This document shows, piece after piece, positions 1 to 16,926 of a stretch of 64,000 nucleotides of DNA. Where the stretch lies: assembly GCF_046105845.1 (NCBI RefSeq), contig NZ_CP151004.1; one strand, 5' to 3'. Below the pieces are notes generated by a model. That model ran no database searches. It saw only the letters and a list, made by a program, of their open reading frames with translations, and was not told where the DNA came from. Both the position numbers and the translations under genes were made by a program. This DNA comes from Escherichia coli. GTDB taxonomy: Bacteria > Pseudomonadota > Gammaproteobacteria > Enterobacterales > Enterobacteriaceae. How positions within the stretch are numbered: the stretch's first letter is position 1; each line of letters begins with the position of its first letter.

Positions 1-2
1 AA

Positions 3-2114
3 GGCATTCGCGGGCAGGATGAATTTGTTCGTGTGAGTTGGGATGAGGCGCTGGAGCTTATTCACCAACAACATAAACGCATTCGTGAGGCTTATGGTCC
101 GGCATCGATTTTTGCTGGTTCCTACGGCTGGCGTTCAAACGGCGTGCTGCATAAGGCCTCGACATTATTACAACGCTATATGGCGCTTGCAGGCGGTTAT
201 ACCGGGCATCTGGGGGATTATTCGACCGGTGCAGCACAGGCGATCATGCCGTATGTCGTGGGGGGCAGCGAAGTTTATCAACAGCAAACCAGTTGGCCGT
301 TGGTGCTGGAACATAGCGATGTCGTGGTGCTGTGGAGTGCTAACCCACTCAATACGCTGAAAATTGCGTGGAATGCATCCGATGAGCAGGGGCTTTCTTA
401 CTTTTCTGCACTGCGTGACAGCAGGAAAAAGCTGATCTGCATTGATCCAATGCGATCGGAAACCGTCGATTTCTTTGGCGATAAAATGGAGTGGGTGGCA
501 CCGCACATGGGCACCGATGTTGCGCTGATGCTGGGGATCGCCTATACGCTGGTGGAAAATGGTTGGCACGACGAAGCGTTTCTGGCGCGTTGCACCACAG
601 GTTATGCCGTCTTCGCCTCTTATTTGCTGGGCGAGAGTGACGGAATAGCCAAAACCGCCGAATGGGCGGCAGGGATTTGTGGGGTTAACGCAGAGAAAAT
701 CCGCGAGCTGGCGGCTCTTTTCCACCAAAACACGACCATGCTGATGGCTGGCTGGGGAATGCAGCGTCAACAGTTTGGTGAGCAAAAACATTGGATGATC
801 GTCACGCTGGCGGCAATGTTGGGGCAAATCGGCACACCCGGCGGCGGTTTTGGTCTTTCTTACCATTTTGCCAATGGTGGTAACCCCACGCGGCGTTCTG
901 CGGTGCTCTCTTCCATGCAGGGCAGCTTGCCTGGCGGCACCGATGCGGTGGATAAAATCCCTGTTGCCCGCATTGTTGAAGCACTGGAAAACCCCGGTGG
1001 CGCATATCAACATAACGGTATGGACCGACATTTCCCGGATATTCGTTTTATCTGGTGGGCGGGCGGTGCCAACTTTACTCATCATCAGGATACCAATCGC
1101 CTGATCCGTGCCTGGCAAAAACCGGAGCTGGTGGTGATCTCTGAATGCTTCTGGACGGCTGCGGCGAAACACGCGGATATCGTTCTGCCTGCGACCACTT
1201 CGTTTGAGCGTAATGATCTCACCATGACCGGCGATTACAGCAATCAGCATCTGGTGCCGATGAAACAAGTGGTGCCGCCACGTTATGAAGCGCGTAATGA
1301 TTTTGATGTCTTTGCCGAGTTGAGTGAACGTTGGGAGAAGGGCGGCTATGCGCGGTTTACGGAAGGAAAAAGTGAGCTGCAATGGCTGGAAACGTTTTAT
1401 AACGTTGCCCGGCAGCGCGGGGCAAGCCAGCAGGTTGAATTGCCGCCATTTGCTGAGTTCTGGCAAGCCAACCAGTTAATTGAGATGCCGGAAAACCCGG
1501 ACAGCGAGCGGTTTATTCGCTTCGCCGATTTTCGCCGCGATCCGCAGGCGCATCCATTAAAAACTGCCAGTGGTAAGATTGAAATCTTCTCGCAGCGTAT
1601 TGCCGATTACGCTTATCCGGATTGCCCTGGGCATCCAATGTGGCTGGAGCCGGACGAATGGCAGGGCAATGCCGAACCGGAACAGTTGCAGGTACTTTCT
1701 GCTCATCCGGCACATCGTCTGCATAGCCAGCTGAATTACAGTTCTCTGCGCGAATTGTACGCGGTGGCAAATCGTGAGCCTGTCACCATTCATCCTGACG
1801 ATGCCCAGGCGCGCGGCATACAAGATGGCGATATTGTTCGGTTGTGGAACGCACGCGGGCAAATTCTTGCCGGAGCGGTCATTAGCGAGGGAATTAAACC
1901 TGGCGTGATTTGTATTCATGAAGGGGCATGGCCGGATCTGGATTTAACCGCTGACGGTATTTGTAAAAACGGCGCGGTGAACGTTCTGACCAAAGATCTC
2001 CCCAGCTCGCGGCTGGGGAATGGCTGTGCGGGTAATACGGCGCTGGCATGGCTGGAAAAATACAACGGTCCGGAACTGACACTTACAGCGTTTGAACCAC
2101 CGGCCAGCTCATAA
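3..2114 (+). CDS. bisC: Biotin sulfoxide reductase, 5'-partial (gene begins upstream of the window); molybdopterin oxidoreductase family
   Basis: Open frame runs from position 3 with no stop to TAA at 2114; translation recognised as BisC C-terminal ~700 aa; the ORF-track start at 33 is an internal GTG. Confidence 0.93.
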
Positions 2115-2523
2115 TCCAGGTGGGTAGTTGGGTTTCATCCTGCCATGCGCAGTCGACAATGTGAAAACCCTGCGCATGGTAAAAATATATCGCCGGTTGA
2201 TTTTTTTGATAAACCTCCAGCATCAGATGGGGATGGCGCTGCTGCACATACTGCATTAGCGCCTTACCAATACCGCGTCTGACGGCCTTCGGTGCGACAA
2301 ACATTGCAGCCAGAAATCGGCCTTCCATAATGCTGACAAAACCGAGAAGCTTACCGTCTTCTTCCCAGACCCAGTTTTGCGCGTTGGCAAGATAGGCATC
2401 CCGCACCAGCGGAATGCAATCACGCCAGTAATTCGCTTTTATAAAGGGATGCCCCCAGGTTGTACTTTCCAGCCACAGTTCGAGGATCGCGGGGAGTTCT
2501 GAACGTTGCGCTTCCCGAATCAT
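2083..2523 (-). CDS. yiaC: GNAT-family N-acetyltransferase, 146 aa
   Basis: 146-aa ORF recognised as YiaC; 3' end overlaps the bisC 3' end by 32 nt (convergent); start overlaps the tag stop by 4 nt. Confidence 0.9.
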
Positions 2524-3083
2524 GGTTTATTTCCCGGATAGCAACAGCAGCCAACCACATGATCATTCACCAGCCCACATGCCTGCATAAAGGAGTAACA
2601 GATTGTGGTACCAACAAACTTAAAACCACGCTTTTTCAGGGCTTTAGATAGAGCGTCGGAGGCGGGCGTAGATGTAGGGATTTCGCTCAACGTTGTGGCT
2701 TGTGTCACCTGTGGTTGATGATTGACAAACGACCAGACAAAGTCGGCAAACGGTTCGCCGTTCTGTTCCATTTGCAGGTACGCCCGCGCATTACCAATAA
2801 TTGCCTGAATTTTCCCGCGATGGCGGATAATCCCGGCGTACTGTACCAGTCTTTCGACATCCTCTTCCTGCATTGCAGCCACCTTCACCGGATCGAACTG
2901 ATGAAAGCTGGCGCGATAGTTTTCGCGTTTTTTGAGGACGGTGATCCACGATAATCCAGCCTGCTGCCCTTCAAGGCAGATCATTTCGAACAGTTTTTTA
3001 CTGTCAGTTTCAGGCACGCCCCATTCATTATCATGGTAGGCAATATAAAGCGGGTCCTGACTCACCCAGCCGCAACGTTCCAT
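2520..3083 (-). CDS. tag: 3-methyladenine DNA glycosylase I, 187 aa
   Basis: ORF-track frame 2520..3320 trimmed to internal ATG (CAT on + strand at 3081-3083) giving MERCGWVSQDPLYIAYHDNEWG, the recognised Tag N-terminus. Confidence 0.92.
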   Translation of the reverse strand: MERCGWVSQDPLYIAYHDNEWGVPETDSKKLFEMICLEGQQAGLSWITVLKKRENYRASFHQFDPVKVAAMQEEDVERLVQYAGIIRHRGKIQAIIGNARAYLQMEQNGEPFADFVWSFVNHQPQVTQATTLSEIPTSTPASDALSKALKKRGFKFVGTTICYSFMQACGLVNDHVVGCCCYPGNKP

Positions 3084-3234
3084 ACTTTCCCTCGCTATGT
3101 ACCCGATCGTAAAAATTTCAGCCGCTTTTCTTGACGCATCGGTGAAAAAGTCAATATTTAATACAGGGCTACTATGCCCGATATCCTTCATACAATGACA
3201 ATAATATTGCCGAATTCGGCTCTTCCCTGGAGTC

Positions 3235-3939
3235 GTGTTAATGATCATAAAAAAAAGCGGTGGTCGCTGGCAGCTAAGCCTGCTGGCGAGTGTGGTAATC
3301 AGTGCCTTTTTTCTCAACACAGCTTACGCCTGGCAACAAGAATATATCGTTGATACGCAACCCGGACATTCCACAGAGCGTTACACCTGGGATAGCGATC
3401 ATCAACCTGATTACAACGATATTTTGTCGCAACGTATTCAAAGTAGCCAAAGGGCGCTGGGACTGGAAGTCAATCTGGCGGAAGAAACTCCTGTGGATGT
3501 GACCAGCAGTATGAGTATGGGCTGGAATTTTCCTTTATATGAGCAGGTTACAACCGGCCCGGTCGCGGCATTACATTACGATGGCACAACCACCTCGATG
3601 TATAACGAGTTTGGCGACAGTACTACCACGCTGGCCGATCCGTTATGGCATGCCAGCGTGAGTACCTTAGGCTGGCGTGTTGACTCCCGGCTTGGCGATC
3701 TCCGACCCTGGGCGCAAATCAGCTATAACCAGCAATTTGGCGAGAATATCTGGAAGGCGCAATCAGGCCTGAGCCGGATGACGGCGACAAACCAGAACGG
3801 CAACTGGCTGGATGTCACCGTAGGCGCTGATATGTTGCTCAATCAAAATATTGCTGCCTATGCTGCGCTATCTCAGGCAGAAAATACCACTAACAATAGC
3901 GACTATCTGTATACGATAGGGGTTAGTGCCAAATTTTAA
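3235..3939 (+). CDS. yhjY: Predicted outer-membrane beta-barrel protein, ~232-234 aa
   Basis: ORF with signal-peptide-like N-terminus and aromatic C-terminal residue (…GVSAKF); position and sequence match recalled YhjY. Confidence 0.85.
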   Translation: MLMIIKKSGGRWQLSLLASVVISAFFLNTAYAWQQEYIVDTQPGHSTERYTWDSDHQPDYNDILSQRIQSSQRALGLEVNLAEETPVDVTSSMSMGWNFPLYEQVTTGPVAALHYDGTTTSMYNEFGDSTTTLADPLWHASVSTLGWRVDSRLGDLRPWAQISYNQQFGENIWKAQSGLSRMTATNQNGNWLDVTVGADMLLNQNIAAYAALSQAENTTNNSDYLYTIGVSAKF

Positions 3940-4053
3940 CGTTATATATACAATTGAAACCATTGGATAACAACAGTTGTGGCGATAGTGGGTGCTAACT
4001 TACTAAATAATAAATTTGGTGAATAATTGTCGAGTCATTCATTCCTGAACTAA

Positions 4054-4084
4054 TGCATTTCATTCTGTTCTGATGGCATTTCAT
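4054..4084 (+). promoter_or_regulatory. Direct repeat tGCATTTCAT-N11-GGCATTTCAT, candidate YpdB (PyrR) response-regulator binding site in the yhjX promoter
   Basis: Two 10-bp near-identical direct repeats separated by 11 bp, ~85-115 bp upstream of the yhjX ATG; matches the recalled YpdB motif. Confidence 0.5.
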
Positions 4085-4167
4085 GCCGTTTTTCCCCAGG
4101 CATAAAGTGCACTTCGTTATGGTTGTCAGCAGAGATTTTTCCTTTTTATTACTGCAGGAATACTGCC

Positions 4168-5370
4168 ATGACACCTTCAAATTATCAGCGTACCCGCTGG
4201 TTGACACTCATCGGTACTATCATTACCCAGTTTGCCCTTGGGTCGGTTTATACCTGGAGCCTGTTTAACGGCGCGCTTTCTGCCAAGCTGGATGCGCCGG
4301 TAAGCCAGGTCGCTTTCTCTTTCGGCTTGTTAAGTCTGGGGCTGGCAATTTCATCTTCTGTTGCGGGGAAATTACAGGAACGTTTTGGCGTTAAACGCGT
4401 CACTATGGCTTCCGGCATTTTGCTGGGATTAGGCTTCTTCCTGACAGCGCATTCTGACAACCTGATGATGCTGTGGTTAAGCGCCGGTGTGCTGGTCGGT
4501 CTGGCGGATGGCGCGGGTTACCTACTGACGCTCTCTAACTGCGTGAAGTGGTTCCCGGAGCGTAAAGGTCTGATCTCCGCGTTCGCTATCGGTTCTTATG
4601 GTCTGGGTAGCCTGGGTTTCAAATTTATCGACACGCAGCTGCTGGAAACGGTGGGTCTGGAAAAAACTTTTGTGATTTGGGGAGCGATTGCGCTGGTGAT
4701 GATTGTTTTCGGCGCAACGTTAATGAAAGACGCACCAAAACAGGAAGTGAAAACCAGCAATGGTGTGGTGGAGAAAGATTACACGCTGGCAGAGTCGATG
4801 CGTAAACCGCAGTACTGGATGTTAGCGGTAATGTTCCTGACTGCCTGCATGAGCGGCCTGTACGTGATTGGGGTAGCGAAAGATATCGCCCAAAGTCTGG
4901 CACACCTTGATGTGGTTTCCGCAGCCAATGCAGTCACTGTTATTTCCATCGCCAACCTTTCAGGTCGTCTGGTTCTGGGGATACTGTCTGACAAAATCGC
5001 CCGAATCCGTGTTATCACCATTGGTCAGGTGATTTCGCTGGTGGGTATGGCGGCCCTGCTGTTTGCACCATTGAATGCAGTGACGTTCTTTGCAGCGATT
5101 GCCTGCGTGGCGTTTAACTTTGGCGGCACCATTACCGTTTTCCCGTCACTGGTCAGTGAGTTCTTCGGCCTCAATAACCTGGCGAAAAACTACGGTGTGA
5201 TTTATCTCGGTTTCGGTATCGGCAGCATTTGTGGGTCGATTATCGCCTCACTGTTTGGCGGCTTCTATGTGACCTTCTACGTGATTTTCGCCCTGCTGAT
5301 TCTGTCACTGGCGCTCTCTACGACGATTCGTCAGCCAGAGCAGAAAGTATTGCGTGAGGCACATATTTAG
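4168..5370 (+). CDS. yhjX: MFS transporter (oxalate/formate antiporter-like), pyruvate-inducible, ~400 aa
   Basis: ORF-track frame 4123..5370 trimmed to ATG at 4168 (MTPSNYQRTRWLTLIG…); multi-helix hydrophobic protein recognised as YhjX. Confidence 0.92.
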   Translation: MTPSNYQRTRWLTLIGTIITQFALGSVYTWSLFNGALSAKLDAPVSQVAFSFGLLSLGLAISSSVAGKLQERFGVKRVTMASGILLGLGFFLTAHSDNLMMLWLSAGVLVGLADGAGYLLTLSNCVKWFPERKGLISAFAIGSYGLGSLGFKFIDTQLLETVGLEKTFVIWGAIALVMIVFGATLMKDAPKQEVKTSNGVVEKDYTLAESMRKPQYWMLAVMFLTACMSGLYVIGVAKDIAQSLAHLDVVSAANAVTVISIANLSGRLVLGILSDKIARIRVITIGQVISLVGMAALLFAPLNAVTFFAAIACVAFNFGGTITVFPSLVSEFFGLNNLAKNYGVIYLGFGIGSICGSIIASLFGGFYVTFYVIFALLILSLALSTTIRQPEQKVLREAHI

Positions 5371-5689
5371 AAATATTTATCTACTAAAACAACAAAAGGG
5401 GAGAGGCGTAAGTATCTCCCTTTTTGTATTTTTTGAGTGTAAATAATACAGTGTTATTGATAATTTGAATAAATTATTGGTTTTCATTTTTAATTTATAT
5501 GGTTTTATTCCTAAAAATAAAATTCTGTCTTTTTCTGAGCTAGTAACTTGTTGATTTTTCCGTATATTTAATATGATTCAAAAATTAATATTTAGTAAAA
5601 ACAATTTTATTTTTTGACGCCATTTGTATAATCTGCGCCCGTTGTATAAACAACATCAAGCATATTTATCTATATAAATGGAGTTATAA

Positions 5690-6214
5690 ATGAAAAAGGT
5701 TCTGTTTGCCTTATCTGCGCTTGCGCTGACCTCTACTTCCGTATTCGCAGCTGATGCGGGCGACGGTACTATCAAATTTACCGGTGAGATTGTTGATGCC
5801 GCTTGTGTTGTGTCTCCGGACTCTCAAAAACAAGAAGTTGTTCTGGGCCAGGTGAACAAGTCTGTTTTTACTGCTATTGGTGATAAATCCACAGCAACGC
5901 CGTTCAAAATCAAACTGGAAAACTGTGATATCTCCTCTTTAAAAAATGTGGAAATCAGCTTTAACGGCGTTGGCGCTACAGGGAACGAGAAACTGGTTTC
6001 TGTAAGCACTGAACCAGGTGCTGCAAGTGGCGTAGGTATCGGTATTTATGATAACACCAATACCCTGGTTGACCTGAATTCTGGTAAATCTGCTACCGTT
6101 CTGAAAGAAGGCCAGACCGTTCTCTACTTCACCGCTAACTATGTCGCTACCGCCGATTCAGTAAGCACCGGTTACGGTAACGCCGAAGTCGACTTCAACC
6201 TGACTTACAATTAA
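5690..6214 (+). CDS. lpfA: Major fimbrial subunit of a long polar fimbriae-type chaperone-usher operon, 174 aa
   Basis: Signal peptide MKKVLFALSALALTSTSVFA, conserved fimbrial Cys pair, C-terminal EVDFNLTYN donor-strand motif; GGAG RBS upstream; resembles recalled LpfA of Salmonella/E. coli O157. Confidence 0.88.
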   Translation: MKKVLFALSALALTSTSVFAADAGDGTIKFTGEIVDAACVVSPDSQKQEVVLGQVNKSVFTAIGDKSTATPFKIKLENCDISSLKNVEISFNGVGATGNEKLVSVSTEPGAASGVGIGIYDNTNTLVDLNSGKSATVLKEGQTVLYFTANYVATADSVSTGYGNAEVDFNLTYN

Positions 6215-6297
6215 TCGCCCCTAACAGGACGATCATCTCTCAATGGCAACAGAGACTCTGTTGCCATTATTCACACCAATGACTCAGGGACCGAATC

Positions 6298-6984
6298 ATG
6301 AAACGTATTAGCCTTGCCGTGCTGGCACTTTTAATGACCGCACAACAGTGTTTTGCTGGTGGCGTAGCCTTAAGTACGACGCGTGTTATTTATGATGGCG
6401 GCAAGAAAGAAGCGTCGCTGACCGTTGAAAATCATAATAAAAATGAAGAGTTTTTGATCCAGTCATGGATTGATGACGTGAATGGTAATAAAAAAACGCC
6501 GTTCATTATTACACCGCCATTATTCAAACTTGATCCCGATAAAAATAACGTCTTACGTATCGTCAATATTGAAGATACCTTACCTAAAGATCGTGAATCC
6601 GTTTACTGGATTAATGTAAAAGCGATTCCTGCGAAAAGTGCTGAAAATGAAAATAAAAACGTCTTACAGATAGCCGTTCGCACCCGTCTGAAGTTGTTCT
6701 ATCGTCCAAAAGGTTTGCCGGGAAGCAACCTCGAGGCAATGAAACAGTTACGTTTCCAGCGTCAAAATAACCAAATTGTGGTTAACAACGACTCCGCTTA
6801 TAACCTGACCTTTAATCAGTTTTCCGTTAATGGACAAAAGATTGAACGGGCGGGAATGGTTCTCGCAAAAGGGACGTTAAACATTAACCTTCCAGCCGGT
6901 ACAGGCAACGCGAACGAAGTGAAATACAGCATTATTAATGATTTCGGTGTTGCCGGCGAAATGCTGATGAAGCCGATCAACTGA
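6298..6984 (+). CDS. lpfB: Periplasmic fimbrial chaperone (PapD-like), 228 aa
   Basis: Signal peptide plus PapD-family-like sequence (…RVIYDGGKKEASLTVEN…, …VRTRLKLFYRP…); sits between major subunit and usher. Confidence 0.88.
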   Translation: MKRISLAVLALLMTAQQCFAGGVALSTTRVIYDGGKKEASLTVENHNKNEEFLIQSWIDDVNGNKKTPFIITPPLFKLDPDKNNVLRIVNIEDTLPKDRESVYWINVKAIPAKSAENENKNVLQIAVRTRLKLFYRPKGLPGSNLEAMKQLRFQRQNNQIVVNNDSAYNLTFNQFSVNGQKIERAGMVLAKGTLNINLPAGTGNANEVKYSIINDFGVAGEMLMKPIN

Positions 6985-7007
6985 CCCTTTTACAAGGCGC
7001 TTTTACT

Positions 7008-9539
7008 ATGCATTGGATGCATTTACCTCTCTATCACTACAGAGCGCATTTTTCCTTCTCACTGCTGGCATTAACGATTGCCAGTTCGTTACCTGCGTAT
7101 GGCGGAAAATTTAACCCTAAATTTCTCGAAAACGTTCAGGGTATCGATCAACACATCGACTTGTCGGTATACGACTCACCTGTAGGCCAGCAAATACCCG
7201 GTAAATATCGGGTTTCGGTGTTTGTAAACGAAGAAAAAATGGCTTCCCGGACGCTGGATTTTAGTACCGCCAGCGAAGCGAAACGCAAAGCCAGCGGTGA
7301 GTCGCTTATGCCTTGCCTTAGCCGGGTGCAACTGGAAGAAATGGGCGTGCGCGTTGACAGCTTTCCGGCGCTGAAGATGTCGCCACCGGAAGCCTGTGTG
7401 GCGTTTGATGAAATCATTCCCCAAGCCACCAGCCGCTTTGATTTTAATACTCAGACGCTACATCTTTCCTTCCCACAAGCGGCAATGATGATGACCGCTC
7501 GCGGCACGGTTGATCCTTCTCGCTGGGATGAAGGAATACCTGCGCTGTTGCTTGATTACAGCTTTAGTGGCAGCAATGGACGCAATGAAGGTACAGGTTC
7601 ATCTTCAGATTCGACCAGTGACAGTTATTACCTGAACCTGCGCAGCGGTTTGAACGTCGGTCCGTGGCGTTTACGTAATAACAGTATCTGGAACCGTATC
7701 GATGGTCAAAACCAATGGGATAACGTTGGCACATCGTTAAACCGGGCGATTATTCCACTCAAGTCACAGATAACGCTGGGTGATACCGCCACACCTGGCG
7801 AGATTTTTGACAGTGTACAAATGCGCGGGGCGCTACTGGCATCCGACGATGAGATGTTGCCGGACAGCCAGCGTGGCTTTGCTCCGGTGGTGCGCGGCAT
7901 CGCCAAAAGCAACGCTGAAGTGAGTATCGAACAGAACGGCTATGTTATTTATCGTACCTTTGTTCAGCCGGGCGCATTTGAGATTAACGATCTCTACGCA
8001 ACCTCCGGCAGCGGCGACCTGACGGTAATCATTAAAGAAGCCGACGGAAGTGAACAACGTTTTATCCAGCCGTTTTCAGCGGTGGCGATTTTCCAGCGTG
8101 AAGGTTATCTGAAATACAGCCTGGCTGCCGGTGAGTATCGTGCGGGTAATTACGACAGCGATAAACCACATTTCGGGCAATTTACCGCCATGTATGGATT
8201 GCCGTGGGGGATGACCGCCTACGGTGGCGCATTGTTGTCGGCAGACTACAACGCTTTAGCGCTGGGGCTGGGGAAAAACTTCGGCACCATTGGCGCGGTA
8301 TCGGTGGATGTCACTCAGGCGAAAAGTCAGTTACGTAACAATGAAAAAGAGGAAGGCCAGTCTTATCGATTCCTCTATTCGAAAAGTTTTGATGGGGGCA
8401 CTGACCTGCGTCTGTTGGGCTACAAGTACTCAACCAGTGGCTATTACACCTTCCAGGAAGCAACTGATGTTCGCAGTGACGCCGACAGTGATTACCGTCG
8501 TTATCACAAGCGTAGCCAGATACAGGGCAACATTACCCAGCAACTGGGAGACTACGGCTCTGTTTATTTCAATATGACGCAGCAGGATTACTGGAACGTT
8601 GACGGTAAGGAAAACTCCTTAAGCGCCGGTTATCACGGTCATATTGGTCGGGTGAATTACAGTGTTGCCTATACCTGGACGAGAAGCCCGGAATGGGAAG
8701 AAGACGATCGCTTGTGGTCATTCAGTGTTTCAATCCCTCTGGGGGGCGCGTGGAGCAGTTATCGCATGACCACCGACCAGAATGGCAAGTCGTCGCAACA
8801 GGCCTCTGTCAGCGGAACGTTACTGGAAGATCGTAACCTGAACTATAACGTCCAGCAGGGTTACACCAGTAATGGCGTAGGCTACAGTGGCAGCGTCAAC
8901 ATGGGGTATATGGGAGGCTCTGGCAACATTGACGTGGGCTATAACTATTCCAAAGATAACCAACAGGTTAACTATGGCGTGCGCGGCGGTGTCATTGTTC
9001 ACAGTGAAGGTATAACGCTTTCGCAGCCCTTAGGTGAAAGCCTGGCAATTGTTTCTGCGCCGGGTGCGCGTGGTGGACATGTAGTAAATAGCAGCGGCGT
9101 TGAAGTTGACTGGATGGGCAACGCAGTGGTGCCTTATCTCACGCCATATCGTGAAACCATTGTGGAATTGCGCAGCGACACGCTGGGGCAAAACGTTGAA
9201 CTACAGGAAGCATTCCAGAAAGTCGTGCCAACGCGTGGTGCAGTTGTACGTTCCCGCTTTGATACCCGCGTCGGTTACCGTGTGCTGATGAGCTTAAAAC
9301 AGGCCAATGGCAACGCAGTACCGTTTGGTGCCACCGCAGCATTAATTGATGAGAGCAAACCTGCCAGCAGCATTGTGGGTGAAGAGGGACAGCTTTATAT
9401 CAGCGGGATGCCAGAAGAGGGCGAATTGCAGGTAAGCTGGGGGAACGAGCAGGCACAACGTTGCCGTGTGCCATTCCGCTTGCCAGAGAACAAGGACAAT
9501 TCGGGTATCGTGATGGTTAATGCGGTATGCGAGAAATAA
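7008..9539 (+). CDS. lpfC: Outer-membrane fimbrial usher, 843 aa, intact
   Basis: 843-aa uninterrupted ORF of usher size and composition; start may be at 7008 or the ATG at 7017. Confidence 0.88.
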   Translation: MHWMHLPLYHYRAHFSFSLLALTIASSLPAYGGKFNPKFLENVQGIDQHIDLSVYDSPVGQQIPGKYRVSVFVNEEKMASRTLDFSTASEAKRKASGESLMPCLSRVQLEEMGVRVDSFPALKMSPPEACVAFDEIIPQATSRFDFNTQTLHLSFPQAAMMMTARGTVDPSRWDEGIPALLLDYSFSGSNGRNEGTGSSSDSTSDSYYLNLRSGLNVGPWRLRNNSIWNRIDGQNQWDNVGTSLNRAIIPLKSQITLGDTATPGEIFDSVQMRGALLASDDEMLPDSQRGFAPVVRGIAKSNAEVSIEQNGYVIYRTFVQPGAFEINDLYATSGSGDLTVIIKEADGSEQRFIQPFSAVAIFQREGYLKYSLAAGEYRAGNYDSDKPHFGQFTAMYGLPWGMTAYGGALLSADYNALALGLGKNFGTIGAVSVDVTQAKSQLRNNEKEEGQSYRFLYSKSFDGGTDLRLLGYKYSTSGYYTFQEATDVRSDADSDYRRYHKRSQIQGNITQQLGDYGSVYFNMTQQDYWNVDGKENSLSAGYHGHIGRVNYSVAYTWTRSPEWEEDDRLWSFSVSIPLGGAWSSYRMTTDQNGKSSQQASVSGTLLEDRNLNYNVQQGYTSNGVGYSGSVNMGYMGGSGNIDVGYNYSKDNQQVNYGVRGGVIVHSEGITLSQPLGESLAIVSAPGARGGHVVNSSGVEVDWMGNAVVPYLTPYRETIVELRSDTLGQNVELQEAFQKVVPTRGAVVRSRFDTRVGYRVLMSLKQANGNAVPFGATAALIDESKPASSIVGEEGQLYISGMPEEGELQVSWGNEQAQRCRVPFRLPENKDNSGIVMVNAVCEK

Positions 9540-9543
9540 GGAT

Positions 9544-10599
9544 ATGCAGATGAAGAAGATATTTGCGAGTGCAATATTTTTTAGCGTAATTTTATTTTCA
9601 GAGGCACTTTACGCTGCAGATTGGGGACCATGTAAGATTGCTTTTGATGGTCCTCCATTCGATTATAGTTTCGATATCAGTCAGAGTATCCAGGAACCAA
9701 CTGAAAATAAGACTGGTAAAATATTAACGTCAACATGGAATTTGGGAACAAAGTACTCAGCATATTGTGAATGCCCTTCGAAGAATCCTGATGCCGGCAA
9801 ACCTACACTCTTTAAAGCTGATGTGAATTTGCAATCCGGGCATGCAACTGATTATTTCAAGGTTAATGATTTTTTAGACGTTACCACTAAGGTTTATGTG
9901 GTGTCATATGGTAATTGGCAAACTCCTTTTACGGATTTAAGTAACCGAACAACAGGTAAGGAGTGTGATCCGGATCATCCGGGAACAGGTTGGGCTACAG
10001 GAAGTAGAGGGGAGTTAAAACTATATATAGTTAAACCTTTTGTAGGACAACTTGATATACCTAAAACAGAAGTTGTGGCAATTTTTGGTACAAAGCAAGC
10101 GGGGGTTTATTATTCGACACCTTTATCAACAGTAAATATATTCGGTAATATAACTGTAACCCAAGGATGTGAACTTGCTGCGGGGACAACGCTTGAGATC
10201 CCCTTTGGCGAATATCAGGCTCATGACTTCAAAGGGCGTGCCGGACAACCGCCCCAGGGGGTACGAAAAATACAAAAAGAGTTAAGTTTTGACTGCAACA
10301 ATATTTCCGATGGAGTCAAAATCTATCTTAGCATTGAAGGTACTCCGAATACGGACTACCCCAGTGCAATCAGTTTGGGTAATTCAGATGTCGGCGCAGT
10401 TATTGAAGATGGGAAAGGCAATATCTTGAAGCCTAACGATAGCAATAGCTTATTGGAAATGGCTCCTGGTTCTCTGTATGACACGGTTAAGCGTACCGCG
10501 AAAACGACAATTACCGCCTACCCAGTCAGTACGAACGGGAAACTCCCCGCTGCAGGTGATTATAGCGGCATTGCTACCATACATGTCGAACTGGAGTAA
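9544..10599 (+). CDS. lpfD: Fimbrial minor subunit / putative tip adhesin, ~350 aa
   Basis: ORF following the usher with signal peptide MKKIFASAIFFSVILFSEALYA; start ambiguous (ATG 9544 or 9550; ORF track gives 9520, overlapping lpfC); visibly AT-rich. Confidence 0.8.
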   Translation: MQMKKIFASAIFFSVILFSEALYAADWGPCKIAFDGPPFDYSFDISQSIQEPTENKTGKILTSTWNLGTKYSAYCECPSKNPDAGKPTLFKADVNLQSGHATDYFKVNDFLDVTTKVYVVSYGNWQTPFTDLSNRTTGKECDPDHPGTGWATGSRGELKLYIVKPFVGQLDIPKTEVVAIFGTKQAGVYYSTPLSTVNIFGNITVTQGCELAAGTTLEIPFGEYQAHDFKGRAGQPPQGVRKIQKELSFDCNNISDGVKIYLSIEGTPNTDYPSAISLGNSDVGAVIEDGKGNILKPNDSNSLLEMAPGSLYDTVKRTAKTTITAYPVSTNGKLPAAGDYSGIATIHVELE

Positions 10600-10604
10600 C
10601 AGTC

Positions 10605-11126
10605 ATGAAGCGAACAATACTTGCGTTATGCCTGCTGCCTCTTTCCTTATCGACAATGGCGCTTACGGATTTGGGAGCGAAGGGTGATTTAAAATTCACT
10701 TTGCAGATCCGCCAGGGTGCCTGTGAACTGGTAAAAGACAATATTGAGGTAGACCTGGGAAGAGCGGTACTTAAACAGCCTGTAAGAATCGGAACAGAAC
10801 TTAATCCCACTACTTTTTCCATCGGTCTGAAAAACTGTAGCGAAGTTGTCAGGGCTTACGTCACCATGAATGGTACGCCCAATACGGACGATCCAAATCT
10901 TTTTGCGCTGGATGCGGGTGGCGCTACGGGCGTTGGGCTGAAAATCAAAACCGCTGCGGGAGTACAACAGTTCCCGGAAAATACGACACCGACGCCGATT
11001 GAGTTCGCGATTAACAGTGATGGCTCACATCAATTGAACTATATCGCCAGCTACGTGCCAATTCGCGCTGATGCAACCATTGGTCGCGCGGATGCAACGG
11101 TCGATTTTACCGTTCAGTACGAATAA
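10605..11126 (+). CDS. lpfE: Fimbrial minor subunit, 173 aa
   Basis: Signal peptide, fimbrial Cys pair, C-terminal …TVDFTVQYE motif; last gene of operon. Confidence 0.85.
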   Translation: MKRTILALCLLPLSLSTMALTDLGAKGDLKFTLQIRQGACELVKDNIEVDLGRAVLKQPVRIGTELNPTTFSIGLKNCSEVVRAYVTMNGTPNTDDPNLFALDAGGATGVGLKIKTAAGVQQFPENTTPTPIEFAINSDGSHQLNYIASYVPIRADATIGRADATVDFTVQYE

Positions 11127-11137
11127 TTTCGCTTCAC

Positions 11138-11161
11138 AGGGCTAGTTAACTAGCCCTTTTT
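11138..11161 (+). terminator. Rho-independent terminator downstream of lpfE
   Basis: Perfect palindrome AGGGCTAGTTAACTAGCCCT followed by TTTT. Confidence 0.7.
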
Positions 11162-11377
11162 ACTGCTTTGTGTAACACTAAAGTCCTTTTTCAAACTTGC
11201 ATTTTTGTAAATTTGTGCTTCATGCACACTCTTTCCCCACACTTTTTCCCTTTGCTGTGGTCTACTTAATCGCGCGTGTAGATTTTACTTATCTGACTAC
11301 CTCCGCACTTTTCCCCTGCCGGGCCTGAAAAGCCGTTAAGCAGGGTGTTATCACCTGTTTGTCCAGGGTTTGTTTGC

Positions 11378-13069
11378 ATGAGATACATCAAATCGATTAC
11401 ACAGCAGAAGCTGAGCTTTTTGCTTGCAATCTATATTGGCCTTTTTATGAATGGCGCGGTTTTTTACCGCCGCTTCGGCAGCTATGCGCACGATTTTACC
11501 GTCTGGAAAGGCATTTCTGCTGTTGTTGAACTGGCCGCCACCGTACTGGTGACCTTCTTTTTACTACGTCTTCTTTCGCTGTTTGGCCGCCGTAGCTGGC
11601 GTATTCTGGCGTCGCTGGTGGTGCTCTTTTCCGCAGGTGCCAGCTATTACATGACCTTCCTTAATGTGGTCATTGGTTATGGCATCATCGCTTCCGTCAT
11701 GACCACCGATATCGACCTGTCAAAAGAAGTTGTTGGTCTGAACTTTATTCTCTGGTTAATCGCCGTTAGCGCATTGCCTCTTATCCTTATCTGGAATAAC
11801 CGCTGTCGCTACACCTTGCTCCGACAACTGCGAACCCCAGGGCAGCGTATTCGCAGCCTGGCGGTCGTCGTACTGGCGGGTATTATGGTTTGGGCACCGA
11901 TTCGTTTGCTGGATATCCAGCAGAAGAAAGTGGAGAGGGCGACCGGTGTTGATTTGCCCAGCTATGGCGGTGTCGTAGCGAACTCTTATCTGCCATCAAA
12001 CTGGCTTTCTGCGTTGGGGCTGTATGCCTGGGCGCGGGTCGATGAATCTTCCGATAACAATTCATTGCTTAACCCGGCGAAGAAATTCACTTACCAGGCA
12101 CCGCAAAATGTTGATGACACTTATGTCGTGTTTATCATTGGTGAAACCACGCGTTGGGATCATATGGGCATTTTCGGCTATGAACGTAACACCACACCGA
12201 AGCTGGCCCAGGAGAAAAATCTGGCAGCGTTCCGTGGTTACTCCTGTGATACCGCAACCAAACTCTCACTGCGTTGCATGTTTGTACGACAGGGTGGGGC
12301 GGAAGATAATCCGCAGCGCACATTAAAAGAACAGAACATTTTCGCGGTATTGAAGCAGTTAGGATTCAGTTCTGATCTCTACGCTATGCAAAGCGAAATG
12401 TGGTTCTACAGCAACACGATGGCAGACAACATTGCTTATCGTGAGCAGATTGGTGCGGAGCCACGTAACCGTGGCAAGCCGGTAGATGATATGTTGCTGG
12501 TAGACGAAATGCAGCAATCGCTGGGGCGCAACCCGGATGGCAAGCATCTGATCATTTTGCATACCAAAGGTTCGCACTTTAACTACACCCAGCGTTACCC
12601 GCGCAGCTTTGCGCAGTGGAAGCCGGAATGTATTGGTGTTGATAGCGGCTGTACCAAAGCGCAGATGATCAACTCCTATGACAACTCGGTGACCTATGTG
12701 GATCACTTTATCTCCAGCGTGATTGATCAGGTTCGCGATAAGAAAGCGATTGTGTTCTACGCAGCTGACCACGGTGAGTCAATTAATGAACGCGAGCACC
12801 TGCACGGCACGCCGCGTGAACTGGCACCGCCGGAGCAGTTCCGCGTGCCGATGATGGTCTGGATGTCAGATAAATATCTGGAAAATCCGGTCAATGCGCA
12901 GGCATTTGCGCAGCTGAAAAAAGAAGCCGACATGAAAGTGCCACGCCGTCATGTAGAGCTGTACGACACCATCATGGGTTGTCTTGGCTATACTTCACCG
13001 GATGGTGGAATTAACGAAAACAACAACTGGTGCCACATCCCGCAGGCAAGAGAGGCGGCGGCTAACTAA
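11378..13069 (+). CDS. eptB: Kdo2-lipid A phosphoethanolamine transferase, 563 aa
   Basis: ORF-track frame 11345..13069 trimmed to ATG at 11378 ([14 protein letters not shown]…); N-terminal TM helices plus sulfatase-like domain recognised as EptB (YhjW). Confidence 0.92.
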
Positions 13070-13160
13070 GAGGCCTGCTGACTTTCTCGCCGATCAAAAG
13101 GCATTTTGCTATTAAGGGATTGACGAGGGCGTATCTGCGCAGTAAGATGCGCCCCGCATT

Positions 13161-13494
<334 letters not shown>

Positions 13495-13495
13495 C

Positions 13496-13584
13496 GTAGG
13501 CCTGATAAGACGCGCCAGCGTCGCTTCAGGCAACGGCACCGCACTTATTGTCGGATGCGGCGCGACCGCCTTATTCGACCTATA
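13496..13584. repeat. BIME: two REP (palindromic unit) elements in inverted orientation
   Basis: GTAGGCCTGATAAGACGCGCCAGCGTCGCTTCAGGC and GTCGGATGCGGCGCGACCGCCTTATTCGACCTAT resemble the E. coli REP consensus. Confidence 0.75.
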
Positions 13585-14148
13585 CACCATACATTTCCCT
13601 GCCAAATTTGCGCCCCATATCTCACTATCCATTAACGGATTTGTGACAGAAACCATTGCCTTTTTTTATATTTGCTTAAATCTTTTTTTGCGTTACTTAT
13701 GGCTGGCGCTGGCATTTTCCGCTGTGCGTTTTAGCGTTCATGGTATTAATCGCTCAGATATCCACCTTTTCCTCAGATTTTTTTCACTAAATGCATAAAA
13801 CTTAATCACCAATTGTTGCTAAATATTAAGCTGATTGTTCTGGTCATGTTGGAGTAGCACAAATTTCTCTGCTGCAAATAGCTGTTTGAAGTTTTTTTAA
13901 TCTTTGTTTGTGGATTCTCACCGTTGGTGTAAATCCCGGTTGGCTGTATTGACGTTTTCACATTCTGTTGACAGATTGTAGGTCACGAGGGGCATTTTAT
14001 GGAGGATCCGCACTGTTACACTGATGTTAATTAGTACGGCATCCCCACCTCATACGTTGACCCGACCGGGCAAAAAACAAAAAAGGTCAGGCAGCGACAA
14101 CCCACTGCAAAGGGTTAAAACAACAAACATCACAATTGGAGCAGAATA

Positions 14149-15756
14149 ATGCGTATTTCCTTGAAAAAGTCAGGGATGCTGAAGCTTGGTCTCAGCCTGG
14201 TGGCTATGACCGTCGCAGCAAGTGTTCAGGCTAAAACTCTGGTTTATTGCTCAGAAGGATCTCCGGAAGGGTTTAACCCGCAGTTGTTTACCTCCGGTAC
14301 TACCTATGACGCCTCTTCCGTGCCGCTTTATAACCGCCTGGTTGAATTTAAAATCGGCACCACCGAAGTAATCCCGGGCCTCGCTGAAAAGTGGGAAGTC
14401 AGCGAAGACGGTAAAACCTATACCTTCCATCTGCGTAAAGGTGTGAAGTGGCACGACAACAAAGAATTCAAACCGACGCGCGAACTGAACGCCGACGACG
14501 TGGTGTTCTCGTTCGATCGTCAGAAAAACGCGCAAAACCCGTACCATAAAGTTTCTGGCGGCAGCTACGAATACTTTGAAGGCATGGGCTTGCCGGAGCT
14601 GATCAGCGAAGTGAAAAAGGTGGACGACAACACTGTTCAGTTTGTGCTGACTCGACCGGAAGCGCCGTTCCTCGCTGACCTGGCAATGGACTTCGCCTCT
14701 ATTCTGTCAAAAGAATATGCTGACGCGATGATGAAAGCCGGTACACCGGAAAAACTGGACCTCAACCCAATCGGCACCGGTCCGTTCCAGTTACAGCAGT
14801 ACCAAAAAGATTCCCGTATCCGCTACAAAGCGTTTGATGGCTACTGGGGCACCAAACCGCAGATCGATACGCTGGTTTTCTCTATTACCCCTGATGCTTC
14901 CGTGCGTTACGCGAAATTGCAGAAGAATGAATGCCAGGTGATGCCGTACCCGAACCCGGCAGATATCGCTCGCATGAAGCAGGATAAATCCATCAATCTG
15001 ATGGAAATGCCGGGGCTTAACGTCGGCTATCTTTCATATAACGTGCAGAAAAAACCACTTGATGACGTGAAAGTTCGCCAGGCTCTGACCTACGCGGTGA
15101 ACAAAGACGCTATCATCAAAGCGGTTTATCAGGGCGCGGGCGTGGCAGCGAAAAACCTGATCCCGCCAACCATGTGGGGCTATAACGACGACGTTCAGGA
15201 CTACACCTACGATCCCGAAAAAGCGAAAGCCTTGCTGAAAGAAGCGGGCCTGGAAAAAGGCTTCTCCATCGACCTGTGGGCAATGCCGGTACAACGTCCG
15301 TATAACCCGAATGCTCGCCGCATGGCAGAGATGATTCAGGCAGACTGGGCGAAAGTGGGCGTGCAGGCCAAAATTGTCACTTACGAATGGGGTGAGTATC
15401 TCAAGCGTGCGAAAGATGGCGAGCATCAGACGGTAATGATGGGCTGGACTGGCGACAACGGGGATCCGGATAACTTCTTCGCCACCCTGTTCAGCTGCGC
15501 CGCCTCTGAACAAGGCTCCAACTACTCAAAATGGTGCTACAAACCGTTTGAAGATCTGATTCAACCGGCGCGTGCTACCGACGACCATAACAAACGCGTT
15601 GAACTGTACAAGCAAGCGCAGGTGGTGATGCACGATCAGGCTCCGGCACTGATCATCGCTCACTCCACCGTGTTTGAACCGGTACGCAAAGAAGTTAAAG
15701 GCTATGTGGTTGATCCATTAGGCAAACATCACTTCGAAAACGTCTCTATCGAATAA
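14149..15756 (+). CDS. dppA: Periplasmic dipeptide-binding protein, 535 aa
   Basis: Signal peptide plus family-5 solute-binding protein sequence recognised as DppA; long upstream leader. Confidence 0.96.
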   Translation: MRISLKKSGMLKLGLSLVAMTVAASVQAKTLVYCSEGSPEGFNPQLFTSGTTYDASSVPLYNRLVEFKIGTTEVIPGLAEKWEVSEDGKTYTFHLRKGVKWHDNKEFKPTRELNADDVVFSFDRQKNAQNPYHKVSGGSYEYFEGMGLPELISEVKKVDDNTVQFVLTRPEAPFLADLAMDFASILSKEYADAMMKAGTPEKLDLNPIGTGPFQLQQYQKDSRIRYKAFDGYWGTKPQIDTLVFSITPDASVRYAKLQKNECQVMPYPNPADIARMKQDKSINLMEMPGLNVGYLSYNVQKKPLDDVKVRQALTYAVNKDAIIKAVYQGAGVAAKNLIPPTMWGYNDDVQDYTYDPEKAKALLKEAGLEKGFSIDLWAMPVQRPYNPNARRMAEMIQADWAKVGVQAKIVTYEWGEYLKRAKDGEHQTVMMGWTGDNGDPDNFFATLFSCAASEQGSNYSKWCYKPFEDLIQPARATDDHNKRVELYKQAQVVMHDQAPALIIAHSTVFEPVRKEVKGYVVDPLGKHHFENVSIE

Positions 15757-15768
15757 TTAAAAGCCATA

Positions 15769-15805
15769 CCCGGTGGCGCTGTGCCTCTGCGTGCAGCGCC
15801 ATCCG
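15769..15805 (+). other. GC-rich stem-loop in the dppA-dppB intergenic region (no T-run)
   Basis: CCCGGTGGCGCTG…CAGCGCCATCCGG inverted repeat, 12-bp stem with one bulge. Confidence 0.5.
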
Positions 15806-15906
15806 GCAGCAATACTTCATTCCCTGCCCGACCTGGGCGGGAATTGATTTGTGAGCAATACAGACACGCAGTTCCAGGCTGCGGGTCACTACAGAGAATC
15901 CGGGTT

Positions 15907-16926
15907 ATGTTGCAGTTTATTCTCCGACGTTTGGGACTCGTCATCCCCACGTTTATCGGTATTACCCTTCTCACATTTGCCTTTGTCCACATGATCCCGG
16001 GCGATCCGGTGATGATCATGGCGGGCGAACGTGGGATCTCCCCAGAGCGTCACGCGCAGCTGCTGGCTGAACTCGGCTTAGATAAACCGATGTGGCAGCA
16101 GTATCTCCATTACATTTGGGGCGTAATGCACGGCGATTTAGGCATTTCAATGAAAAGCCGCATCCCGGTTTGGGAAGAGTTCGTGCCGCGCTTTCAGGCC
16201 ACGCTGGAGCTTGGTGTCTGCGCGATGATTTTTGCGACTGCGGTCGGTATTCCGGTTGGTGTGCTGGCTGCGGTTAAACGCGGTTCTATTTTTGATCACA
16301 CAGCGGTTGGCCTGGCGCTGACAGGTTATTCAATGCCTATCTTCTGGTGGGGCATGATGCTGATCATGCTGGTTTCGGTGCACTGGAACCTGACGCCCGT
16401 CTCCGGTCGCGTGAGCGACATGGTGTTCCTCGATGATTCCAATCCGTTAACCGGTTTTATGCTAATCGACACCGCCATCTGGGGTGAAGACGGTAACTTT
16501 ATCGATGCCGTCGCCCATATGATCCTGCCCGCTATTGTGCTGGGTACGATACCGCTGGCGGTCATTGTGCGTATGACACGCTCCTCGATGCTGGAAGTGC
16601 TGGGTGAAGATTACATCCGCACCGCGCGCGCCAAAGGGTTGACCCGCCTTAGGGTGATTATCGTCCACGCGCTGCGTAACGCGATGCTGCCGGTGGTGAC
16701 CGTTATCGGCCTGCAGGTGGGAACATTGCTGGCGGGGGCGATTCTGACCGAAACCATCTTCTCGTGGCCCGGTCTGGGGCGCTGGTTGATTGACGCACTG
16801 CAACGCCGCGACTATCCGGTAGTGCAGGGCGGCGTATTGCTGGTGGCGACGATGATTATCCTCGTCAACCTGCTGGTCGATCTGCTGTACGGCGTGGTGA
16901 ACCCGCGTATTCGTCATAAGAAGTAA
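15907..16926 (+). CDS. dppB: Dipeptide ABC transporter permease, 339 aa
   Basis: ORF-track frame 15781..16926 trimmed to ATG at 15907 (MLQFILRRLGLVIPTFIG…), the recognised DppB start. Confidence 0.95.
   Translation: MLQFILRRLGLVIPTFIGITLLTFAFVHMIPGDPVMIMAGERGISPERHAQLLAELGLDKPMWQQYLHYIWGVMHGDLGISMKSRIPVWEEFVPRFQATLELGVCAMIFATAVGIPVGVLAAVKRGSIFDHTAVGLALTGYSMPIFWWGMMLIMLVSVHWNLTPVSGRVSDMVFLDDSNPLTGFMLIDTAIWGEDGNFIDAVAHMILPAIVLGTIPLAVIVRMTRSSMLEVLGEDYIRTARAKGLTRLRVIIVHALRNAMLPVVTVIGLQVGTLLAGAILTETIFSWPGLGRWLIDALQRRDYPVVQGGVLLVATMIILVNLLVDLLYGVVNPRIRHKK

Follow-up and report, generated by a model that had tools for sequence, protein, structure and literature searches.

The 64,000-nucleotide stretch of the Escherichia coli contig NZ_CP151004.1 (RefSeq assembly GCF_046105845.1) that we analysed, hereafter the window, carries five open reading frames (ORFs) on the same strand, spanning 5690-11126, between the genes yhjX and eptB. 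These very probably constitute an intact lpf1 operon (lpfABCDE) of long polar fimbriae (Lpf), situated at an old locus that has been diversified by the exchange of cassettes. A first-pass annotation of this DNA had proposed a five-gene lpf operon; the ORFs do occur where it had placed them, and each of the proteins passes the matching Lpf model. It was also right in calling the locus a known accessory type and not a new system (PMC3559732, PMC3032704, PMC5357955). The part that Lpf plays in colonisation is well studied in enterohaemorrhagic (EHEC), enteropathogenic (EPEC) and adherent-invasive (AIEC) E. coli and in Salmonella. The genes of the operon are as follows.

5690..6214, + strand: lpfA, major fimbrial subunit (174 amino acids (aa); Pfam Fimbrial; NCBIfam LpfA)
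6298..6984, + strand: lpfB, periplasmic chaperone (228 aa; Pfam PapD_N and PapD_C; NCBIfam LpfB)
7008..9539, + strand: lpfC, outer-membrane usher (843 aa; Pfam PapC_N, Usher and PapC_C; NCBIfam LpfC)
9550..10599, + strand: lpfD, tip adhesin with two domains (349 aa; an N-terminal one of a rare class for receptor binding and a C-terminal pilin domain; NCBIfam LpfD)
10605..11126, + strand: lpfE, minor subunit, a rare allele (173 aa; Pfam Fimbrial; NCBIfam LpfE)

Family membership was assessed with the NCBIfam models NF011756, NF011755, NF011754, NF011753 and NF011752, each of which has a curated cut-off. LpfA scored 328.8 bits against the LpfA equivalog model (cut-off 221), LpfB 467.6 bits (cut-off 360), LpfC 1821.8 bits (cut-off 1271; model positions 1-842 of 842), LpfD 474.7 bits (cut-off 412) and LpfE 290.4 bits (cut-off 169). 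For all five proteins the best-scoring model was the matching Lpf model, the next-best model outside Lpf for LpfE being the FimF adaptor. The gene order (major subunit, chaperone, usher, adhesin, minor subunit, all on one strand) is identical to that of genomes in which RefSeq annotates lpfABCDE, and the homologous genes in RefSeq relatives are annotated lpfA to lpfE. Moreover, the hallmarks of a chaperone-usher system are present: a two-domain PapD-like chaperone (LpfB covers positions 1-125 of 126 in PapD_N and 1-60 of 63 in PapD_C) and a full-length three-domain usher (LpfC covers 1-145 of 146 in PapC_N, 1-549 of 549 in Usher and 1-66 of 66 in PapC_C). The ORF and the full-length Pfam and NCBIfam matches bear out the earlier description of the usher as a single uninterrupted frame of 843 codons.

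The five exact protein sequences are already public: they occur at NCBI under the names E. coli LpfA to LpfE, in 5 to 36 contigs each, and positions 1-13214 of the window are 100% identical to contig DBAMWG010000004.1 of GCA_044249515.1. This is, in other words, a known system at a known site. Mild novelty attaches only to the rare class of adhesin domain described below; the rest is known biology.

By its sequence, the operon appears capable of fimbrial assembly. All frames are uninterrupted and all domains are full length, consistent with the earlier impression of assembly competence. In the N-termini of the fimbrial proteins a hydrophobic core precedes an A-x-A-like site, as in Sec signal peptides; in LpfA, the predicted signal peptide ends at SVFA|ADAG and the protein contains one Cys pair. 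The Pfam Fimbrial domain is found in LpfA, LpfE and the C-terminal domain of LpfD. The subunits thus fit the combination of a signal peptide and a pilin fold with a Cys pair, by which donor-strand exchange is predicted to be possible.

From family membership and established chaperone-usher biology, we infer the following course of assembly. All five proteins would leave the cytoplasm through the Sec pathway by way of their N-terminal signal peptides. LpfB would cap the subunits in the periplasm by donor-strand complementation, and LpfC would serve as the outer-membrane assembly pore, catalysing ordered donor-strand exchange. The two-domain adhesin LpfD would be incorporated first, at the tip, with LpfE in a minor or adaptor role and LpfA polymerising into the shaft. 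Transcription would run from near a TATAAT motif upstream of lpfA to a re-used core terminator behind lpfE (both described below), and expression of the fimbria would probably be shut off in the laboratory and induced in the gut. EHEC lpf is induced under simulated stomach and small-intestine conditions (PMC5357955). EHEC Lpf has been implicated in translocation across or targeting of M cells and in the interaction with Peyer's patches, the same being cited for Salmonella and AIEC (PMC5357955).

Two non-coding features of the operon may bear on its expression.

5371..5689, + strand: regulatory spacer between yhjX and lpfA (319 bp, 23.8% G+C (GC))
6242..6268, + strand: perfect 12-bp hairpin in the spacer between lpfA and lpfB (fold z = -3.3, 0 of 200 shuffles equally stable)

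The computed length and composition of the upstream spacer agree with the earlier estimate of an AT-rich region of about 320 bp. Its proximal part holds ATTTGTATAATC, which is invariant across the aligned lpf1 types (six upstream regions), with TATAAT at 5627-5632; a Shine-Dalgarno-like GGAG precedes the lpfA ATG, and this ribosome-binding site is conserved across the lpf1 types. The promoter probably lies near the invariant TATAAT, with the transcription start there. The distal part (5371 to about 5561, some 190 bp) is about 57% identical to every relative aligned, and the megablast alignments of all relatives begin only at about 5562. A BLAST search with 5371-5580 gave no match in 5,426 complete RefSeq E. 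coli genomes, a result to which the low-complexity filter may contribute partly. The same distal variant is conserved in public draft assemblies that share the LpfA of the window. As to the hairpin between lpfA and lpfB, it is a candidate intercistronic element that, by analogy with other chaperone-usher operons, may stabilise the mRNA or act as an attenuator, raising the ratio of LpfA to LpfB.

We found no GATC (Dam) site between 4576 and 6230 (1.65 kb, comprising the 3' end of yhjX, the spacer and lpfA), and the search for a fimS-like invertible switch upstream returned only short AT-rich inverted repeats, as occur in DNA of 24% GC, and no recombinase gene. A Pap-like Dam/Lrp switch and a fim-like phase switch were both rejected, given the lack of GATC and of a credible invertible element. 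In the window as a whole GATC is slightly more frequent than in shuffled sequence (260 versus 229 ± 13). A spacer of 24% GC is typically the kind of DNA that H-NS would bind and silence. Repression of O157 lpf1 by H-NS and its counter-silencing by Ler are the subject of papers that appear in the reference list of PMC5357955.

Another possibility, which we regard as rather unlikely, is that the operon is intact yet cryptic, permanently silenced (e.g., by H-NS if this strain lacks a counter-silencer such as Ler), on its way to decay and of no consequence for adhesion. The extreme AT-richness of the regulatory region and the H-NS and Ler papers on O157 lpf1 would be in keeping with it, as would the title of Tatsuno et al. 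2006 (cited in PMC3032704), according to which EPEC lpf has no role in adherence, and the interruption of the operon by IS600 in some relatives. In the window, however, five full-length frames are present with neither a frameshift nor an insertion sequence (IS), and the identity of LpfB and LpfC to the O26-type proteins (97-99% aa versus 95-98% nt) suggests purifying selection. The invariance of the proximal promoter motif and the ribosome-binding site across types and the inducibility of EHEC lpf likewise speak for an operon that is still in use.

The chromosomal surroundings of this presumably functional operon comprise the following features.

4168..5370, + strand: yhjX, major facilitator superfamily (MFS) transporter, the left flank (Pfam MFS_1; annotated yhjX in relatives; 400 aa, ending REAHI*)
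5392..5427, + strand: hairpin with a T-run just past the yhjX stop codon, within the accessory segment; likely the yhjX terminator in genomes that carry lpf
11138..11162, + strand: rho-independent terminator (hairpin and TTTTT), the yhjX terminator of the core genome, shared with K-12, at which the lpf operon ends
11378..13069, + strand: eptB, Kdo2-lipid A phosphoethanolamine transferase, the right flank (Pfam Sulfatase and EptA_B_N; 99% aa identity to annotated EptB)

K-12 MG1655 has yhjX and eptB side by side, separated by 323 bp that contain no fimbrial genes. The first-pass annotation had put the operon between these two genes, at a site empty in K-12, and the comparison bears out both statements: K-12 does not carry the same genes there. 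In the alignment, 96 bp of K-12 are replaced by 5,774 bp in the window (5365-11138). Homology with K-12 ends at 5364, twelve bases before the stop codon of K-12 yhjX, and resumes at 11139, at the terminator hairpin; the boundaries proposed earlier (5371-11170) pointed to the right site but are corrected to 5365-11138. The last two codons of yhjX in the window consequently fall within the divergent region: YhjX is 400 aa long and ends in EAHI*, versus 402 aa and EAHGSL* in K-12.

The hairpin of the terminator behind lpfE (11138-11157) consists of eight pairs and a 4-nt loop, followed by TTTTT, and the differences between the two strains in its stem are compensatory (GGGCCA/TGGCCC in K-12, GGGCTA/TAGCCC in the window). 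The "clean palindromic terminator" noticed earlier thus exists, but it is core DNA shared with K-12 and not part of the accessory segment: the yhjX terminator of K-12 is re-used after lpfE in the window. The hairpin just past the yhjX stop (5392-5427) has a minimum free energy of -21 kcal/mol (z = -6.1, 0 of 200 shuffles equally stable), and the alignment of upstream regions shows an equivalent in all lpf1 types.

Apart from lpfA to lpfE, we found no ORF in 5365-11138 with the role of an integrase or a transposase; no flanking direct repeats or att repeats were found at the junctions. Neither junction has a tRNA gene, the nearest being proK, 2 kb off, past eptB. The usual marks of a mobile genomic island (an integrase or transposase, att sites or direct repeats on either side, a tRNA gene as the point of insertion) are thus absent from this locus.

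The position between yhjX and eptB (also called yhjW), known as O-island 141, and the antiquity of lpf have already been published, and we confirmed the position of O157:H7 lpf1 directly on an O157:H7 genome; a literature search combining lpf with yhjX, yhjW or eptB turned up nothing useful. We equate the locus by inference with the type that Wurpel et al. 2013 call "Lpf-like" and match to Salmonella lpfABCDE (PMC3559732), on account of the respective ordering in that paper and its remark on an extra 3' subunit gene. According to the same work, the E. coli locus that corresponds to Salmonella Lpf has the identical position and is ancestral, which places an lpf-type locus in the common ancestor of Escherichia and Salmonella (PMC3559732).

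The gene order is also found in other genera. A scan with the LpfC profile over one genome per prokaryotic species returned five loci, none of them from Salmonella. Enterobacter sichuanensis and an uncultured Pseudocitrobacter metagenome-assembled genome (MAG) have yhjX-lpfABCDE-eptB; Enterobacter quasihormaechei has yhjX-lpfABCDE, the locus stopping inside lpfE with eptB out of view; and Escherichia albertii has lpfCDE-eptB-dppA on a contig that begins inside lpfC. The fifth locus, of Enterobacter sp. kpr-6, carries lpf one gene over (yhjX-eptB-lpfABCDE-dppA, 4739-16713), and its YhjX, of 404 aa, has another C-terminus. A YhjX of 400 aa with an EAH(I/A)* end occurs in every genome that has lpf directly 3' of yhjX, and the 402-aa protein of K-12 is the exception among the forms compared.

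The synteny in outgroups, the C-terminus of YhjX and the published placement (PMC3559732) make it more likely that the empty site of K-12 reflects a single old loss than that it represents the state before insertion. Indeed, in every one of the empty-site genomes listed, the matches to the two flanks lie exactly 823 bp apart, and the empty site appears to be one shared haplotype with the 96-bp filler of K-12 and not the outcome of many independent deletions.

Among the 5,426 complete E. coli genomes, in which a genome was counted when at least 80% of the query was covered, three lpf1 types with protein identities of 35-70% occupy the same site and together account for about 22% of the genomes; the position between yhjX and eptB was confirmed on one representative per type and assumed for the rest. 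The O26-like type, to which the window belongs, is found in 696 genomes, the O157:H7 (OI-141) type in 422 and the AREA_486 type, which fits the published lpfA1-1 primers with one to two mismatches, in 78. The AREA_486-type genome NZ_CM142666.1 provides an example of decay at the locus: its lpf operon (2514835-2521587) is broken by IS600, of the IS3 family.

The diversity at occupied sites probably stems from homologous replacement of whole or partial cassettes, which the comparisons show in part. LpfC is 68-70% identical between the E. coli types, while the LpfC of the window type is 73-74% identical to that of two Enterobacter species; since the divergence between E. coli types exceeds that from Enterobacter, horizontal transfer has taken the form of cassette replacement. 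Furthermore, the O157-type lpfABCDE (3428-8925 of the O157:H7 locus) has its closest counterpart in the operon of the Pseudocitrobacter MAG (contig CAJYVI010000071.1; 8593-14083 of that locus), to which it is 93.1% identical in nucleotides, with 98% aa identity in LpfC, whereas the flanking yhjX, eptB and dppA of the two are only 75-84% identical. Either a fairly recent transfer of the cassette between genera into the same site or a mis-binned contig would account for this likeness.

In E. albertii NBRC 107761, EptB (4408-6096) is 78% identical (aa) to that of the window and DppA (7180-8784), about 1 kb further on, 99.6%; there, lpf and eptB seem to lie within a recombination tract that came from another genus. 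The yhjX of the window is only 86.7% identical (nt) to that of O157:H7 TR01 (1898-3100); other pairs show about 96-97%, and eptB about 97%. The C-terminus of O157 YhjX (CVIFALLII...QQK) is similar to the Enterobacter and Pseudocitrobacter ones. It appears that the divergence associated with the cassette extends into the flanking core gene yhjX.

Within this diversity, the cassette of the window is of the O26/B1-like type and not of the O157:H7 lpf1 type, as judged from protein identities. From LpfA to LpfE, these are 91.4, 97.8, 99.2, 64.6 and 87.4% with O26 11368 and 69.5, 64.0, 68.7, 34.9 and 42.4% with O157. In the window, an O26-like backbone thus comes with an LpfD receptor domain and an LpfE that are both rare, and with a distal regulatory segment that is distinct. 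LpfE is 87-88% identical (aa) to other O26-type LpfE proteins, and its 90% cluster contains only eight sequences.

The lpfA gene is 93% identical (nt) to that of O26 11368. It has 10 and 7 mismatches with the lpfA1-1 primers and 5 and 4 with the lpfA1-3 primers. The scheme for typing lpfA1 alleles, lpfA1-1 to lpfA1-5, is reportedly that of Torres et al. 2009, and we take O26:H11 to belong to the EHEC2 clonal group. The allele lpfA1-2 has been assigned to that group (PMC3417533).

The lpfD ORF measures 359 aa from its first possible start at 9520, but the start at 9550 is more likely, since an AAGGA stands 7 nt upstream of it and the mature ADWGPC coincides with residue 1 of 5AFO_A. The Pfam Fimbrial domain covers the C-terminal half only. 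Residues 23-349, i.e., the mature protein, align end to end with PDB entry 5AFO (E = 4.6e-140, 64% identity), the N-terminal domain with 49% and the pilin C-terminal domain with 80% identity. The depositors named the 5AFO chain only "FIMBRIAE"; in view of Coppens et al. 2015, which is listed among the references of PMC5357955, we take it to be LpfD of AIEC LF82. The same contrast between domains is seen with O26 LpfD (N-terminal domain 47%, pilin domain 86%). The class of N-terminal domain found in the window occurs in five of the 5,426 complete E. coli genomes. In a search of 5.8 billion protein clusters, LpfD matched its own cluster (17 sequences) at 99%, the next relatives at 76 and 73%, several other E. 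coli LpfD classes at 58-65%, and LpfD proteins with Salmonella or Enterobacter as named source at 42-47%.

It is a tentative suggestion that this rare receptor domain may recognise a host ligand or tissue other than that of the Lpf adhesins studied so far. If it did, the site between yhjX and eptB would be a cassette slot in which adhesin specificity and regulation are traded between lineages, and even between genera.

Base composition brings up a different account of the locus, in which a genomic island was recently acquired into an originally empty yhjX-eptB site, with K-12 preserving the state before insertion; we consider this improbable. The segment has 46.1% GC versus 51.5% in its surroundings, with 45.9% in lpfA, 41.8% in lpfB, 51.3% in lpfC, 41.8% in lpfD and 48.7% in lpfE; the part of lpfD that encodes the N-terminal domain drops to 38.6%, with 27.9% GC at third codon positions (GC3). 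The flanking genes have 50.5-51.6% GC and a GC3 of 58-61%, so that the by-eye observation that lpfD is more AT-rich than its flanks is confirmed. This deficit, the composition of the upstream spacer, the occupation of about 22% of the genomes and the close likeness of the O157-type cassette to that of the Pseudocitrobacter MAG between much less similar flanks would all suit recent acquisition. The composition of lpfC, on the other hand, is core-like, and the adhesin domains and regulatory DNA of fimbrial loci are typically low in GC whatever their age. The recurrence of the gene order in Enterobacter, Pseudocitrobacter, E. albertii (as far as the contig end) and reportedly Salmonella (PMC3559732), the left break inside yhjX with the odd 402-aa form on the side of K-12, and the junctions devoid of mobility genes, direct repeats and tRNA genes all argue against it. 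Of the earlier opinion that the composition fits horizontal acquisition, the low GC stands, and transfer does occur in the form of cassette replacement; insertion into an empty site is the less likely reading, the gene order being shared across genera.

Several points nevertheless weigh against an old, intact and working locus as proposed here. The low GC of the segment and the patchy occupancy just mentioned fit acquisition as well. The synteny with Salmonella is taken from PMC3559732, where it is given as "data not shown". Compared by blastn-short with the cassettes of six E. coli and five other-genus loci, the 96-bp filler of K-12 gave nothing above chance; as a deletion scar is unrecognisable, the case for a loss depends on outgroup synteny and the YhjX C-terminus. 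The assignment of the promoter rests on one invariant motif, and a generic scan for sigma-70 promoters showed no enrichment (7 found versus 9 expected from shuffled sequence), missing the TATAAT because no -35 element stands at the standard spacing. The receptor of LpfD cannot be deduced, its N-terminal domain being only 49% identical to that of the one LpfD studied structurally. Lastly, an intact sequence alone is no proof that a fimbria is made.

On balance, we read the locus as an old one that most E. coli have lost and that cassette replacement has diversified, although it resembles an "accessory island absent from K-12"; the case warns against taking low GC together with absence from K-12 for recent acquisition. 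The lpf1 of this strain is intact and probably functional, its adhesin domain is uncommon, and its lpfA falls outside the lpfA1-1 and lpfA1-3 typing primers.

Beyond eptB, the window contains proK (tRNA-Pro CGG, 13161-13237), an RtT element (13272-13405) and, on the minus strand, a naRNA4/REP-type element (13499-13580). An Rfam scan of 3500-14500 returned only these three and no known RNA family within the operon. The copy number of RtT varies between strains (JNE151685 has two annotated copies, O26 11368 and TUM22764 have one each), and alignments break there. Elsewhere the window consists of syntenic E. coli core (yiaC, tag, yhjY, dpp, bcs ... gadA, mdtF). Among the 5,426 complete RefSeq genomes the best match reaches only 98.5-99.0%, the lineage being poorly represented there.

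Lpf belongs to the gamma-1 fimbriae and has type 1 as a relative (PMC3032704; gamma-1 in Table 5). There is next to no chance that the operon is another chaperone-usher system mislabelled as Lpf (Stg/lpf2 at glmS-pstS, Fim/Sfm, Stf or Yad), for although the FimA/I/F, FimC, FimD and FimH models give secondary matches, as befits this relationship (PMC3032704), none of the Fim, Bcf, Sti, Stf, Std, Saf or other fimbrial models in NCBIfam reaches its own curated cut-off with any of the five proteins (FimC 198 versus 327, FimD 780 versus 975, FimH 89 versus 472, StfD 94 versus 447), all five of which pass the matching Lpf model, and the site is yhjX-eptB and not glmS-pstS. Stf-, Yad- and Fim-type identities were rejected on these scores and on the site, and the proteins do not match another fimbrial family.

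Among known systems, lpf1 of O26:H11 and phylogroup B1 strains (lpfA1-2 type; 11368; lpfA1-E1 of E. coli W) is like that of the window in site, gene order, gene lengths and proximal promoter, but unlike it in LpfD (64.6%), LpfE (87%) and the distal 190 bp of the spacer (about 57%, unrelated). The nearest relative with a complete genome is E. coli JNE151685, with 95.5% nt identity over 97% of the region: lpfD is 99.4% identical, lpfB 97.8%, lpfC 95.8%, lpfA 93.3% and lpfE 87.4%. The lpf operons of JNE151685, Ec-U9-1, Ec-U10 and Ec-U14-2 are those named as sharing the rare LpfD class of the window (LpfD 98.6% aa, 99.4% nt). JNE151685 nonetheless differs in LpfA (90.2% aa), LpfE (88.5% aa) and the distal upstream segment, and because these three diverge, its operon and that of the window are different mosaics.

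The usher of O157 was originally described as split (lpfCC'), unlike the single frame of the window. O157:H7 lpf1 (OI-141, lpfA1-3) shares site, five-gene order and family with the window and serves as the reference in which the targeting of M cells and Peyer's patches has been studied by experiment (PMC5357955). LpfD of AIEC LF82 (PDB 5AFO) has the two-domain architecture in common with that of the window but differs in the receptor-binding domain, and at 49% identity there the ligand specificity of LF82 is not transferable. The lpfABCDE operon of Salmonella enterica, the founding member of the family, is much more divergent in sequence, its LpfD being 42-47% identical to that of the window. 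Phase-variable expression and a Peyer's-patch phenotype in mice belong to Salmonella lpf, where they were shown, and not to the allele in the window; as to phase variation, the upstream region of the window differs in that neither Dam (GATC) sites nor an invertible switch are seen there. For the B1-type cluster, aa identities of 44-77% to Salmonella lpf have been reported (PMC3032704).

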